64,000 bases of DNA, from assembly GCF_003334335.1 (NCBI RefSeq), contig NZ_QOWQ01000022.1, one strand, 5' to 3'. A program made the position numbers and the translations under genes. The DNA is from Escherichia coli (GTDB lineage: Bacteria > Pseudomonadota > Gammaproteobacteria > Enterobacterales > Enterobacteriaceae). Positions 4,623 to 56,842 of this stretch are shown here, one piece after another; within the stretch, counting starts at the first letter, position 1, and each line of letters starts with the position of its first letter. The notes beneath the pieces were generated by a model. The model saw only the letters and a program-made list of their open reading frames with translations, had not been told where the DNA came from and did no database searches.

Positions 4623-6383
4623 TTATTTTGCCCAGAATGCTGCTTTGGCGCGCTGCAGCTTTTCGTAGGCCTTCAACAACGACTGATGTGCAGCAAACGC
4701 GTGCAGATCGCTATCTACCGGTTGCAGGCCGTAAAACGCCGCTTCGCCGCTCATTGCCGCACTGGCGGCTTCTACGGCATCTGCGCCGTACATGCGAACA
4801 AACGCATTCAGATATTGCAGCGGCTGGCGATCTTCTTCCTGTGCCAGTAATAACAACGTTTGCAGGCAGCGATAATAGTTGGCGCGTTCCGGACTAAATA
4901 CTGATGAGTTAAACTCCATCGTCCATTCGGTCCAGACCAGAGCCTGTTCCAGATCGCCACCAGCCAGCGCCAGCATGGCTTTTAATTCACCGATACGCAG
5001 GGTGTACCAACCGTTATCCGACCCGGTCGCCAGACCCAACAGCTCACGCACGCGGGTAAAGTCATCAAAACCTTCTTCATCCAGTTGCTCGATGAGGTTC
5101 AGGTAATCTTCTTTTTCCCACTCGCTGCCTGGTAGCGAAAGAATCGTTTCACGTAAATGGCTGCCCATACTGTTATTCGCGAGCCACAGATCTTCAGCCG
5201 GATAAATATCGGACATGCCAGGCACGATAATACGGCAAGCATAAACGCCCAGATGCTCGTAATCGGCAATATAAACTTCTTTATCTTCTTTGTTGAAGAT
5301 AGCCATCAGTGTGGCGAACTCTTCTTCCGTGGTGCCGGAGAAATTCCAGTCCACAAACGGATAATCGGCATCCTGCTTGAACAGGTCCCAGGAGATTAAA
5401 CCGCTGGAATCGATAAAGTGCGTTTCGAGGTTGGTATGTTCAGCGACTTCTTCATCATCGAAGGTTGGCGGAGTAAACACATCCAAATCTTTCAGGCCAC
5501 GACCTTGCAGCAGCTCGGTCACGGTACGTTCCAGTGCTACGCCAAAATCAGGATGCGCACCGAAAGAGGCAAAGCAGGTACCGTTAGCAGGATTGAACAG
5601 TACCACGCAAATCACCGGATACTGGCCGCCAAGCGAACCGTCATAAGCGAAGATTGGGAAACCCTCCGCTTCCAGCGTTTCGATGGCTTCAACTACTGCT
5701 GGGTAACGCGCCAGCACGTCTGCCGGGATCTCTGGCAGGCTGATGCTTTCAGCAATAATGCGGTTTTTCACGTAGCGTTCGAAAACTTCAGACAATCCCT
5801 GAACGCGTGCTTCGTTGCGGGTATTACCTGCGGACATACCGTTGGAGACGTACAGGTTACCAATGATATTCATCGGAATATAAACGGTCTGATTGTCGGA
5901 CTGACGCGTAAACGGCAGGCCGCAAATACCACGATCTTCGTTACCGGATTGTAGGTCAATCAGCATGCTGCCGGTCAGTTCATTCTCCGGATCATAAAAC
6001 GCGCGCAGACGGTCATCGAGCAGCCCTTCTGGCACATCGTCATTTTCGGTCAGTGGGAACCATTTTTCGTTGGGATAATGCACGAACGGACCGTTGGCGA
6101 TGGTTTCGCCCAGCCAGAAGTCCGCAAAAAAGTAGTTGGTTGAGAGACGCTCGAAATATTCACCGAGTGCAGAAGCCAGCGCCGCTTTCTTGGTTGCGCC
6201 TTTACCGTTGGTAAAACACAGTGCGCACTCTTTGTCGCGAATATGTACAGACCAGACGTTAGGCACGGGATTCAGCCAGGAGGCCTCTTCAATCTGAAAG
6301 CCGAGGTCTGAAAGTTTTTGCTGGAAGCGAGCGATGGAATCTTCCAGAGCGGCATCTTTGCCGGGGATAAATGTTTGCGTCAT
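4623..6383 (-). CDS. ycaO: YcaO-domain ATP-dependent enzyme, 586 aa
   Basis: ORF 4623..6416(-) trimmed to MTQTFIPGKD; divergent from ycaP. Confidence 0.9.
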   Translation of the reverse strand: MTQTFIPGKDAALEDSIARFQQKLSDLGFQIEEASWLNPVPNVWSVHIRDKECALCFTNGKGATKKAALASALGEYFERLSTNYFFADFWLGETIANGPFVHYPNEKWFPLTENDDVPEGLLDDRLRAFYDPENELTGSMLIDLQSGNEDRGICGLPFTRQSDNQTVYIPMNIIGNLYVSNGMSAGNTRNEARVQGLSEVFERYVKNRIIAESISLPEIPADVLARYPAVVEAIETLEAEGFPIFAYDGSLGGQYPVICVVLFNPANGTCFASFGAHPDFGVALERTVTELLQGRGLKDLDVFTPPTFDDEEVAEHTNLETHFIDSSGLISWDLFKQDADYPFVDWNFSGTTEEEFATLMAIFNKEDKEVYIADYEHLGVYACRIIVPGMSDIYPAEDLWLANNSMGSHLRETILSLPGSEWEKEDYLNLIEQLDEEGFDDFTRVRELLGLATGSDNGWYTLRIGELKAMLALAGGDLEQALVWTEWTMEFNSSVFSPERANYYRCLQTLLLLAQEEDRQPLQYLNAFVRMYGADAVEAASAAMSGEAAFYGLQPVDSDLHAFAAHQSLLKAYEKLQRAKAAFWAK

Positions 6384-6512
6384 GAAAATCACTTTAGTCG
6401 TACGGAAAGCGCGCAATAATACGGGTTTTATCTCAAAGGCGCTATCACCGCCGCCATGCCGATGAACTGTTGACTATGCTTTTAGCGGATAAACCACGTT
6501 AAGAGCATAAAA

Positions 6513-7205
6513 ATGAAGGCGTTCGATCTCCACCGTATGGCATTTGATAAAGTGCCTTTTGATTTCCTTGGCGAAGTTGCACTACGTAGTCTTTATACCT
6601 TTGTACTGGTCTTTTTGTTCCTCAAAATGACCGGAAGACGCGGTGTGCGGCAGATGTCGCTGTTTGAAGTTTTAATCATTCTGACGCTGGGATCAGCGGC
6701 GGGAGATGTGGCGTTTTATGATGATGTGCCGATGGTCCCGGTACTTATCGTCTTTATTACTCTGGCGTTGTTATACCGCCTGGTAATGTGGTTGATGGCG
6801 CACAGTGAAAAACTGGAAGATCTTCTGGAAGGCAAGCCAGTTGTCATTATTGAAGATGGCGAGCTGGCCTGGTCGAAACTCAATAACTCCAACATGACGG
6901 AATTTGAGTTCTTTATGGAGCTACGATTGCGTGGCGTGGAGCAGCTGGGGCAGGTACGTCTGGCGATTCTCGAAACCAACGGGCAAATCAGTGTCTATTT
7001 CTTTGAAGATGACAAGGTGAAACCGGGTTTACTTATTTTACCCAGTGATTGTACGCAGCGTTACAAAGTGGTGCCGGAGTCGGCGGACTATGCCTGTATT
7101 CGTTGTAGTGAAATCATTCATATGAAAGCGGGGGAAAAACAATTATGTCCGCGCTGTGCAAATCCAGAATGGACGAAGGCAAGTCGGGCAAAACGGGTGA
7201 CCTGA
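6513..7205 (+). CDS. ycaP: DUF421-family inner membrane protein with C-terminal CxxC...CxxC motif
   Basis: ORF 6513..7205(+), 230 aa; hydrophobic N-terminal half; CIRCSE...CPRCANP near C-terminus. Confidence 0.85.
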   Translation: MKAFDLHRMAFDKVPFDFLGEVALRSLYTFVLVFLFLKMTGRRGVRQMSLFEVLIILTLGSAAGDVAFYDDVPMVPVLIVFITLALLYRLVMWLMAHSEKLEDLLEGKPVVIIEDGELAWSKLNNSNMTEFEFFMELRLRGVEQLGQVRLAILETNGQISVYFFEDDKVKPGLLILPSDCTQRYKVVPESADYACIRCSEIIHMKAGEKQLCPRCANPEWTKASRAKRVT

Positions 7206-7403
7206 CAGTAAAAACATCGGCTTTTTGCTAATAATCCGAGAGATTCTTTTGTGTGATGCAAGCCACATTTTTGCCCTCAACGGTTTTACTCATTGCGATG
7301 TGTGTCACTGAATGATAAAACCGATAGCCACAGGAATAATGTATTACCTGTGGTCGCAATCGATTGACCGCGGGTTAATAGCAACGCAACGTGGTGAGGG
7401 GAA

Positions 7404-8492
7404 ATGGCTCAAATCTTCAATTTTAGTTCTGGTCCGGCAATGCTACCGGCAGAGGTGCTTAAACAGGCTCAACAGGAACTGCGCGACTGGAACGGTCTTG
7501 GTACGTCGGTGATGGAAGTGAGTCACCGTGGCAAAGAGTTCATTCAGGTTGCAGAGGAAGCCGAGAAGGATTTTCGCGATCTTCTTAATGTCCCCTCCAA
7601 CTACAAGGTATTATTCTGCCATGGCGGTGGTCGCGGTCAGTTTGCTGCGGTACCGCTGAATATTCTCGGTGATAAAACCACCGCAGATTATGTTGATGCC
7701 GGTTACTGGGCGGCAAGTGCCATTAAAGAAGCGAAAAAATACTGCACGCCTAATGTCTTTGACGCCAAAGTGACTGTTGATGGTCTGCGCGCGGTTAAGC
7801 CAATGCGTGAATGGCAACTCTCTGATAATGCTGCTTATATGCATTATTGCCCGAATGAAACCATCGATGGTATCGCCATCGACGAAACGCCAGACTTCGG
7901 CGCAGATGTGGTGGTCGCCGCTGACTTCTCTTCAACCATTCTTTCCCGTCCGATTGACGTCAGCCGTTATGGTGTAATTTACGCTGGCGCGCAGAAAAAT
8001 ATCGGCCCGGCTGGCCTGACAATCGTCATCGTTCGTGAAGATTTGCTGGGCAAAGCGAATATCGCGTGTCCGTCGATTCTGGATTATTCCATCCTCAACG
8101 ATAACGGCTCCATGTTTAACACGCCGCCGACATTTGCCTGGTATCTATCTGGTCTGGTCTTTAAATGGCTGAAAGCGAACGGCGGTGTAGCTGAAATGGA
8201 TAAAATCAATCAGCAAAAAGCAGAACTGCTATATGGGGTGATTGATAACAGCGATTTCTACCGCAATGACGTGGCGAAAGCTAACCGTTCGCGGATGAAC
8301 GTGCCGTTCCAGTTGGCGGACAGTGCGCTTGACAAATTGTTCCTTGAAGAGTCTTTTGCTGCTGGCCTTCATGCACTGAAAGGTCACCGTGTGGTCGGCG
8401 GAATGCGCGCTTCTATTTATAACGCCATGCCGCTGGAAGGCGTTAAAGCGCTGACAGACTTCATGGTTGAGTTCGAACGCCGTCACGGTTAA
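7404..8492 (+). CDS. serC: phosphoserine aminotransferase, 362 aa
   Basis: ORF 7404..8492(+); [16 protein letters not shown]-terminus; upstream of aroA. Confidence 0.97.
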
Positions 8493-55193: not shown

Positions 55194-55736
55194 ATGCGAA
55201 TTAAACCAGACGATAACTGGCGTTGGTATTACGATGAAGAGCACGATCGAATGATGCTCGATTTAGCCAATGGTATGCTATTTCGCTCACGTTTTGCGCG
55301 CAAGATGTTGACTCCAGATGCCTTTTCTCCCGCAGGCTTTTGCGTTGACGACGCCGCGCTCTATTTCTCTTTTGAAGAAAAGTGCCGCGATTTTAATTTA
55401 TCTAAAGAACAAAAAGCCGAACTGGTGCTGAATGCACTGGTAGCAATTCGCTATCTCAAACCGCAAATGCCGAAAAGCTGGCATTTTGTTTCCCATGGTG
55501 AAATGTGGGTGCCCATGCCGGGCGATGCGGCCTGCGTTTGGTTGAGCGATACTCACGAGCAGGTCAATTTGCTGGTCGTTGAATCTGGCGAAAATGCCGC
55601 ACTATGCCTGCTGGCACAACCCTGCGTTGTTATTGAGGGTCGCGCGATGCAGTTGGGCGACGCCATTAAAATCATGAACGACAGGCTGAAACCGCAGGTT
55701 AATGTTGACAGCTTCAGCCTCGAACAGGCAGTCTAA
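55194..55736 (+). CDS. zapC: FtsZ-associated cell division protein ZapC, 180 aa
   Basis: ORF 55158..55736(+) trimmed to [18 protein letters not shown]. Confidence 0.88.
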
Positions 55737-56842
55737 CGCGCCAACTTAAGTGCAGTCTTCGGTACACAGCTACAGCAAAGAATGGTGCCATCATCGCCCA
55801 TTGCTGATTTTTTCAGCGGCGTGACTTCGCCTTCTAAAAGCTGAACACGGCAACTTCCACAAATGCCCGCGCGGCAAGAATAAGGGATACGAATTCCCTG
55901 ATTTTCTAATTGCTCCAGCAACACCTGTTGGTTATTTCCACGAAATGCCTGTCCCTGCCAGTCAATATCTACATTTGCGTCCGGTTGTTGCGTGATGTTG
56001 GCGGTATCATCAGCGGCAGCTGCGCCGTAAATTTTTGCCGGAGCCGTTGCCAGAATTTCCACCTCATCGCCAACGCGAATCACGCCGCTATTACGGGCAA
56101 TTAAATTCTGACCAAAATCGACATCGCCGTTATCCTGGGCAGTGCGGAAAGATTGCAATGTTTTTAATGGTTCGCCTGCCGGATGTTTTTGCCCTTTTTC
56201 TGGGCTGACGGTGGTGAAAATACAGCGGCTACAAGGTTTAACCACATCAAACACCACATCACCAATGCGAATCACTTTCCAGCGATCTTCTTCCCAGGCT
56301 GACGCGCCGGAAACCACCAGATTGGGGCGGAATTGCTCCATTTTTACACTGGCCGGACAACGTTGTTGGAGATCACGTAACGAGGCTTCGTTAGCAAGAA
56401 GGTAAGGATAGCCATCAGCAAATGACAGAGGTACAGTGTTGTGGCGTTTCACGCGCCGGGTCATTTGTGGCCCCACCCAGCGTAATTGCACTTCGCGGGA
56501 GAAAAATCCACTTAGCCATTTGTTGATCGCGTCTGGCGCAATTCGCGCGGTAAAATGTGTGCCCCAAACTTCGGTTGGTGCGTCTTGTGTGGCGAAATCA
56601 GCAAAACGAACATATGCGCTACTGCCATCTGGTGCGGTGAGATGCAAGCCATCATGCACAGGTGAAGGAGTAAACCGTACCATCTGGGGAAACTGGCGAG
56701 CGGTAATAAACGTACCGTCAGGTTCCGTGATCATAAAGATGCGATCGAAGGCCAGACCACTGACATCTGCCAGAGCATGTGTAAGACCAATGCCGCGCAT
56801 CGATTTAACAGGATGAATAAAAAGCCGGATTAATGTCGCCAC
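55733..56842 (-). CDS. ycbX: MOSC-domain protein with C-terminal 2Fe-2S ferredoxin-like domain, 369 aa
   Basis: ORF 55733..56842(-); C-terminal CRAGICGSC...CCSC cysteine cluster. Confidence 0.9.

Follow-up and report, generated by a model that had tools for sequence, protein, structure and literature searches.

The window analysed here, a stretch of 64,000 nucleotides (nt) of Escherichia coli DNA (contig NZ_QOWQ01000022.1 of assembly GCF_003334335.1), carries ycaP, a gene for an inner-membrane protein of the DUF421 family, between the divergent ycaO and serC-aroA. The open reading frame (ORF) at 6513..7205 (+) encodes 230 amino acids (aa) plus a stop codon, as given by the ORF list and its translation, and a match of 100% identity bears the annotation "ycaP: DUF421 domain-containing protein". 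The ycaP stretch was matched in 5426 of 5426 complete E. coli genomes, with at least 80% of it covered in 5422. YcaP belongs to the E. coli inner-membrane proteins without an assigned function, and we found no literature dedicated to it; in print it is mentioned only in expression lists or as a marker for transduction, with linkage to focA. Its C-terminal tail carries, within the final 40 residues, four cysteines that form a real and strongly conserved motif, and the tail is predicted to be a cytoplasmic ribbon mini-domain of about 35 residues.

A first-pass annotation of this DNA had pointed to two CxxC pairs at the C terminus of YcaP and proposed that they build a small zinc ribbon. The ORF translation and the match to annotated ycaP bear out the motif, but the pairs are separated by 13 residues instead of the 15 then given, which makes the motif CxxC-x13-CxxC with Cys195, Cys198, Cys212 and Cys215 as its members (nt 7095-7157). 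The protein ends in ...DYACIRCSEIIHMKAGEKQLCPRCANPEWTKASRAKRVT, and the peptide quoted in that annotation corresponds to residues 195-220 (nt 7095-7172, within 7091-7180). The cysteine codons lie at 7095-7097 (C195), 7104-7106 (C198), 7146-7148 (C212) and 7155-7157 (C215), followed by that of Trp220 at 7170-7172; a fifth cysteine, at position 180, is not conserved. The gene and the parts of its product are as follows:

6513..7205 (+): ycaP coding sequence (ORF list, sequence, match to annotated ycaP)
6558..6803 (+): N-terminal membrane domain, aa 16-97, with three transmembrane (TM) helices (YetF_N; Pfam, hydropathy, model helices)
6801..7022 (+): single DUF421 alpha/beta subdomain, aa 97-170, equivalent to the first subdomain (N-terminal domain, NTD) of the YetF soluble region
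7023..7082 (+): linker, aa 171-190, with the conserved motif G172-L173-x3-P177 (alignment of 91 sequences)
7083..7178 (+): predicted Cys4 ribbon mini-domain, aa 191-222, in the order strand, knuckle 1, strand, loop, knuckle 2, strand
7095..7106 (+): knuckle 1, Cys195-Ile-Arg-Cys198, followed in E. coli by Ser199 (codons, alignment)
7146..7157 (+): knuckle 2, Cys212-Pro-Arg-Cys215, of the CPxC type (codons, alignment)
7170..7172 (+): Trp220, an aromatic residue on the last ribbon strand (W in 86 of 91 sequences)
7173..7202 (+): basic C-terminal tail TKASRAKRVT, net charge +4 in E. coli (sequence)

Architecture and topology of YcaP

The family to which YcaP belongs is defined by a membrane domain and a soluble region with two alpha/beta subdomains (Pfam PF20730 and PF04239), and YcaP has the first two of these three parts. 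The YetF_N model matches residues 22-92 (E 9.5e-5), over which hydropathy peaks at about 18-40, 48-68 and 72-96, and the DUF421 model for the YetF C-terminal domain matches residues 97-170 (E 7.9e-17), spanning model positions 2-76 of 129 only. The sole solved relative is Bacillus subtilis YetF (PDB 3c6f, E 4.7e-6), and both halves of the 3c6f chain align to one and the same YcaP segment, 103-166, as would be expected of a YcaP with one copy of a unit that is present twice in YetF. Residues 171-230, where the second alpha/beta subdomain (C-terminal domain, CTD) would be expected, are modelled as strands and coil without helices. YcaP is thus a member of the DUF421/YetF family with a variant C terminus, in which the ribbon replaces the second subdomain of YetF.

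The topology was assigned with the positive-inside rule over 91 homologous sequences, taking three TM helices. The N-terminal segment holds on average 1.42 Lys and Arg residues (net charge -2.0), loop 1 (residues 38-48) holds 3.1 (net +2.95) and loop 2 (residues 65-73) holds 0.15 (net -1.75). With a positive loop 1, an acidic N terminus and loop 2, and three TM helices, this distribution points to an N-out/C-in arrangement with both the DUF421 unit and the ribbon in the cytoplasm. The tail is therefore predicted from charge distribution to be cytoplasmic, where the first-pass annotation had named a periplasmic location as the finding that would speak against it, and the ribbon is predicted to lie in a reducing compartment. 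In UniProt the C terminus of YcaP is likewise given as cytoplasmic, from the fusion survey of Daley et al. 2005.

Several residues of the membrane region are charged and near-invariant in the same 91 sequences, namely E21 and R25 in TM1, R43 in loop 1 and D65 at the end of TM2. E52 in TM2 is highly conserved (78/91), and G60 and G64 at the end of TM2 are also near-invariant. Charged and polar TM residues of this kind (nt 6573-6707, aa 21-65) are unusual for a purely structural membrane anchor, and could reflect an ion or polar pathway or tight salt bridges between helices.

Conservation and predicted fold of the cysteine tail

When the YcaP sequence was shuffled 500,000 times, the pattern C..C-x(8-25)-C..C turned up in 86 of the shuffled sequences. 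Among the 120 closest clusters, all from Enterobacteriaceae at 77-99% identity, 117 keep the exact 21-residue CxxC...CxxC arrangement, and the three exceptions are one frameshifted entry and two singletons from raw assemblies. A broader search of 1.84 billion cluster representatives gave 4725 matches, of which the best 150 were inspected; essentially all full-length relatives among these carry CxxC-x(9-19)-CxxC at the same position, and those that do not are fragments, chimeras, short forms or cysteine variants. Among the matches listed in each search (the best 120-150), all intact full-length proteins are of the YcaP type or are short forms.

An alignment of 91 of these proteins, at 28-88% identity to YcaP, shows how selective this conservation is. 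C195 is kept in 90, C198 in 88, C212 in 88 and C215 in 87 of the 91, and the four rank among the most conserved columns of the alignment. Position 199 is Gly in 81 sequences, with Ser in E. coli, and the Trp220 column is W in 86. Pro213 is the commonest residue at its column (42/91) and Gly216 is found in 28/91; the positions between the ligands have no dominant residue and vary freely. In the linker, G172 (91/91), L173 (86/91) and P177 (85/91) are conserved and the rest is variable. A further 96 matches to the family profile all carry the motif with a spacing of 12-14, and all 96 have a Trp at most eight residues after the fourth cysteine. Across the family the pairs are 9-19 residues apart, and the signature can be written Y-A-C-x-x-C-G ... 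C-P-x-C-x4-W. Conservation of the cysteines among orthologues was the check on which the zinc-ribbon proposal had been made to depend, and it holds among close relatives (117/120), among diverse ones down to about 29% identity (87-90 of 91) and among the further profile matches (96/96).

The departures from the motif are as informative as its retention. Three sequences (P0202, P0211 and P0212) keep three cysteines and have a His shortly after the third; two (P0206 and P0214) have a shifted cysteine, giving CxC. In P0166, P0195 (from Methanosarcina) and P0234, two or all four of the cysteines are lost and the flanking Tyr and Trp are kept. These three cysteine-depleted proteins are each other's nearest relatives; a tail from this clade (P0166, P0195/P0271 from Methanosarcina, and P0234; loci L005/L006) reads YSCYKTGETAWMEKGSSFPYCEGDTW. 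A metal site would be expected to show just such exchanges of Cys for His and losses of several ligands at once, and both also suggest that the role of the mini-domain is architectural. The version with the ribbon occurs in Enterobacterales, Serratia, Brenneria, Erwinia, Pseudomonas, Acinetobacter, many Bacteroidota, Microvirga and Calidithermus, and Methanosarcina has the cysteine-depleted form of the YcaP-type protein.

Structure prediction agrees with a ribbon. AlphaFold2, run on full-length YcaP with the 91-sequence alignment, gave a model with a mean predicted local distance difference test score (pLDDT) of 89.4 and a predicted template modelling score of 0.77, in which helices span residues 16-40, 48-68 and 74-97 and the alpha/beta unit spans 99-163. 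The tail is modelled at pLDDT 94-97 with strands at 191-195, 201-204 and 220-222, which puts each CxxC at a strand end, as in zinc ribbons; the isolated tail, modelled alone, takes the same fold at pLDDT 81. Two conserved knuckles 10-20 residues apart and a three-stranded topology with the knuckles at strand ends are what define the Cys4 zinc-ribbon fold, and the modelled tail shows both. The nearest solved folds to the tail are all Cys4 metal knuckle domains (Rpb12, the rubrerythrin C-domain, MCM ribbons and rubredoxins). A profile of the tail searched against PDB sequences is topped by rubrerythrin (5e-4), Rpb12 (1.4e-3) and S27ae, with other Cys-rich metal-binding proteins, mostly ribbons and rubredoxins, lower down. 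When 50 family tails were scanned against Pfam at E<=1e-3, 12 matched DUF1451, which Pfam describes as a "zinc-ribbon containing domain", six DUF7129, four RUBY_RBDX and three Zn_ribbon_8. The proposal of a small zinc ribbon is thus supported by the three-stranded model, by Cys4 fold neighbours, and by profile and Pfam matches of the tail.

The E. coli sequence could be assigned to no named ribbon family. The C2HC5, DZR_2, NOB1 ribbon, RpoP and FmdB-type models match YcaP at about residues 191-226, below threshold only. Membership in RNA polymerase subunit P/Rpb12 (RpoP) was rejected, as NF001605 gave 17.2 bits (cut-off 63) and NF001608 gave 15.8 bits (cut-off 84), leaving a resemblance in fold only; membership in the FmdB-type CxxC_CxxC_SSSS family or in any single Pfam ribbon family was likewise rejected for E. 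coli YcaP, with scores far under the thresholds. Automatic annotation has already brushed against the module: one JGI record is labelled "YcaP / RNA polymerase subunit RPC12/RpoP", and two database entries carry precomputed PF07295 or PF21349 matches. In the literature we came across no account of the module.

Expression and genomic surroundings

Expression of ycaP is 66-fold RpoS-dependent in stationary-phase E. coli EDL933 (PMC2907692), and the gene is up about 4-fold, together with dps and other stress genes, on inhibition of LolCDE (PMC5105897). A Deinococcus DUF421 gene responds to loss of dps and to H2O2 (PMC12898284).

The genes around ycaP homologues were compared in five lineages (E. 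coli; P0139; Methanosarcina; Larkinella; and Hymenobacter together with a genome labelled "Microvirga"). No gene is conserved beside the homologues in all five and no conserved redox neighbour was found in them; the neighbourhoods vary, and gene neighbourhood was rejected as a clue to a partner. Single lineages have surroundings of their own. A YcaP-type homologue of 37% identity (L002-L004, gene 5001-5684) is flanked by genes for DUF2383 ferritin-like, DUF892 (YciE/F-like), YtxH, DUF5670 and CinA proteins, and such a general-stress cluster occurs in only one of the five lineages; a DUF2383/DUF892/YtxH neighbourhood is typical of general-stress and dormancy regulons and echoes the RpoS dependence of E. 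coli ycaP. The cysteine-depleted Methanosarcina homologue adjoins hemerythrin genes. In Hymenobacter and the genome labelled Microvirga, a serine-biosynthesis fusion (HAD, 2-hydroxyacid dehydrogenase and ACT) lies downstream of or near the homologue (L008, 4879-6780; L009, 6788-8689), and E. coli ycaP is immediately upstream of serC (window 7404-8492). This proximity to serine genes, seen in two or three lineages only, may be a coincidence.

At the DNA level, an RNA or regulatory element under the motif was rejected, since Rfam has no match across 6000-8000 and a scan for promoters and terminators gave no more than in shuffles. Two antisense ORFs, at 7118-7261 and 7143-7280, are short and lack support. 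On the other side of ycaP, the program-made ycaO ORF (window 4623-6416, -) starts at TTG and has 597 aa; the RefSeq ycaO coding sequence is shorter (1761 nt, 586 aa), which places the true start downstream of the first TTG in frame. Elsewhere in the window, a 369-aa ORF at 55733-56842 (-) has a C-terminal 2Fe-2S ferredoxin-type cysteine cluster (CGSC...CCSC), and NCBIfam ferredoxin models match its residues ~275-368 below their cut-offs. By its size and position this is presumably YcbX.

Role of the ribbon and relation to known systems

The closest known system is that of the B. subtilis DUF421 spore inner-membrane proteins YetF, YdfS, YkjA, YrbG and YdfR, of which 3C6F is the structural representative. 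In YetF, three TM helices are followed by an NTD, a linker of 20 residues and a CTD that shares the fold of the NTD (PMC10126465). The four subunits in the 3C6F crystal form a pinwheel, with the NTD of each in contact with the CTD of another, and this homotetrameric "basket" assembly is known only from that crystal (PMC10126465). YcaP has the TM domain and the NTD, followed by the G-L-x3-P linker and then the ribbon instead of the CTD. We therefore think that the tail of YcaP is probably a compact Zn(Cys)4 clamp or cap with a structural task, which would be to steady the cytoplasmic assembly of a membrane protein induced by stress. YcaP has three TM helices in the predicted N-out/C-in orientation, one cytoplasmic DUF421 subdomain, the linker and a Cys4 beta-ribbon whose CxxC and CPxC knuckles would hold a single metal ion, most likely Zn(II), and so staple the mini-domain together. 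The ribbon takes the position of the YetF CTD, which clamps onto the first subdomain of another subunit, and could dock on the DUF421 unit to take the role of the YetF CTD within a tetramer.

We infer metal binding, docking onto the DUF421 subdomain and an oligomer role for the ribbon. Zinc is the most likely metal, being the usual one in short Cys4 ribbons of this type. A structural role is favoured because conservation is confined to the ligands, the knuckle glycine and one Trp; because the surface of the ribbon is variable and on average uncharged (+0.3 ± 2.0); and because the cysteines, or the module as a whole, are missing from some lineages. Two complete DUF421 genes for short forms of 187 and 182 aa (loci L010, 1501-2064, and L011, 284-832; proteins P0254 and P0262) lie inside contigs and stop right behind the first cytoplasmic subdomain, with neither ribbon nor second subdomain. 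The ribbon is probably not a catalytic or nucleic-acid-binding unit.

A number of observations weigh against a zinc clamp. The best sequence match of the tail is the iron-binding, rubredoxin-like domain of rubrerythrin, which makes Fe a possible metal. With the E. coli tail as query, every curated zinc-ribbon model stays below its threshold; the best Pfam i-E is 0.0028, with none at E<=0.001. The clamp and oligomer role is proposed by analogy with the crystal tetramer of a distant relative. The gene neighbourhoods are not conserved and give no partner.

The alternative that survives best, though we consider it unlikely, is that the Zn(Cys)4 thiolates are reactive, as in Hsp33 or zinc-containing anti-sigma factors, and that their oxidation releases zinc and so alters the conformation of the membrane domain or the oligomeric state in stationary phase or under oxidative stress. 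The predicted cytoplasmic location of the site, the strong RpoS dependence of ycaP and its co-induction with dps and other stress genes would suit such a redox or metal sensor, as would the response of the Deinococcus gene to dps loss and H2O2 (PMC12898284), the distant homologue beside ferritin-like and general-stress genes (DUF2383, DUF892, YtxH), and the Methanosarcina homologue beside hemerythrin genes. However, the expression data bear on sensing only indirectly, and a sensing site and a purely structural one look alike in sequence. The cysteine-less clade keeps the mini-domain and complete short forms lack the module altogether, so the core function of these proteins needs no switch.

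It is more doubtful that the tail is a rubredoxin-like Fe(Cys)4 centre that binds iron and transfers electrons as the C-terminal domain of rubrerythrin does. That domain (RUBY_RBDX, PF21349) has very similar short spacing and knuckles: it is the best PDB match of the tail profile (E 5e-4), it is matched at E<=1e-3 by four of 50 family tails, the E. coli tail not among them, and the family consensus CxxCG...CPxC resembles rubredoxin knuckles, with "lWeClnCGhl...CPvC" in rubrerythrin against "lYaCtrCGt...CprC" in the YcaP family. But the rubrerythrin domain is wired to a di-iron centre, whereas YcaP has no redox partner domain, nor is there a conserved redox neighbour in the five lineages. E. 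coli has a Ser after knuckle 1, and a Gly follows knuckle 2 in 28/91 sequences only. The substitutions by His, and the lineages in which the ligands are gone altogether, are easier to reconcile with a structural site than with an electron carrier. Because the fold is common to zinc ribbons and rubredoxins, the similarity does not tell Zn from Fe.

It is improbable that the ribbon recruits nucleic acid (RNA or DNA) or a specific soluble protein of the cytoplasm to the membrane. Many of the structural neighbours are RNA polymerase, ribosomal and MCM ribbons, E. coli YcaP has the basic end TKASRAKRVT (net +4), and many homologues end in (K/R)R-I/V-x. Across the family, however, neither the ribbon (+0.3 ± 2.0) nor the tail after the Trp (+0.6 ± 2.1) is consistently basic, the surface positions between the ligands are unconserved and no gene partner is conserved in the five lineages. 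The matched ribbons of Rpb12 and of ribosomal proteins serve mainly structural purposes, which counts against recruitment too. Nucleic-acid binding, one of the options raised in the first-pass annotation, accordingly finds no support in a near-neutral ribbon (+0.3 ± 2.0) of which only the ligands, Gly199 and Trp220 are conserved. That the cysteines form a chance pattern, or a pair of disulfides without metal or function, is very improbable and effectively refuted by conservation: some proteins do have CxxC pairs by chance, and the tail of E. coli YcaP is under every curated model threshold, but the motif appears in only 86/500,000 shuffles, the cysteines are near-invariant at ~29% identity in several phyla, the predicted site is in the reducing cytoplasm and the ribbon model is confident. 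The zinc switch, the iron centre and recruitment are each less economical than the structural clamp.

Since YetF-type proteins increase inner-membrane rigidity and wet-heat resistance in spores (PMC10126465, PMC12548441), a stationary-phase membrane-stabilising role of YcaP is a reasonable extrapolation from its relatives. An RpoS-dependent gene that belongs to a dormancy-associated membrane family makes a suggestive link. One could go further and imagine YcaP-type proteins as the non-sporulating counterparts, in Enterobacterales, Pseudomonas, Acinetobacter, Bacteroidota and Deinococcota, of the spore heat-resistance proteins YetF and 2Duf, with the Cys4 centre as a redox- or metal-responsive latch on the tetrameric "basket"; this is a long shot. 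If true, the latch would couple oxidative or metal stress in stationary phase to the rigidity or permeability of the inner membrane.

The gene, its family and its fold class were known already; what was undescribed is that in the YcaP branch a Cys4 ribbon replaces the second subdomain of YetF. Membrane proteins with a zinc ribbon are common enough, and nothing here points to a new mechanism. The result gives an uncharacterised E. coli protein a clean and testable annotation, with an ordinary module in an undescribed place, and the ribbon gives an experimental handle on YcaP.

Ribbons of this fold are found in other settings. The Rpb12/RpoP-type and other Cys4 ribbons (Zn_ribbon_RPAB4, Zn_ribbon_8, DUF1451 and NOB1) share with the modelled tail two CxxC knuckles that flank a beta-hairpin, followed by a third strand. 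Sequence matches to them are weak, with all matches of the E. coli sequence below threshold, and the YcaP ribbon differs in being fused to a membrane protein and in having its own signature. A precedent for a CxxC...CPxC ribbon on the cytoplasmic face of a polytopic E. coli inner-membrane protein exists in the same window, in PqiA/LetA (YebS), but the membrane domain of PqiA/LetA and its system, which is for lipid transport, are unrelated to YcaP, and only the generic ribbon fold is common to them.

Closer in kind is 2Duf, a combination of DUF421 and DUF1657 encoded in the spoVA2mob transposon, which likewise has an extra small C-terminal module on a DUF421 membrane protein; its module is DUF1657 and not a Cys4 ribbon, and unlike YcaP it is specific to spore formers. 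Together, the short forms, the ribbon proteins and the DUF1657 variants show that the C-terminal module is accessory, optional and exchanged in evolution. With the YetF group, YcaP shares expression in dormancy or stress, under sigma F/G in spores for YetF and under RpoS in E. coli. Unlike YetF, it has no second alpha/beta subdomain and has a Cys4 ribbon in its place, and the large non-sporulating branch that made this swap represents a second major architecture of the DUF421 family.

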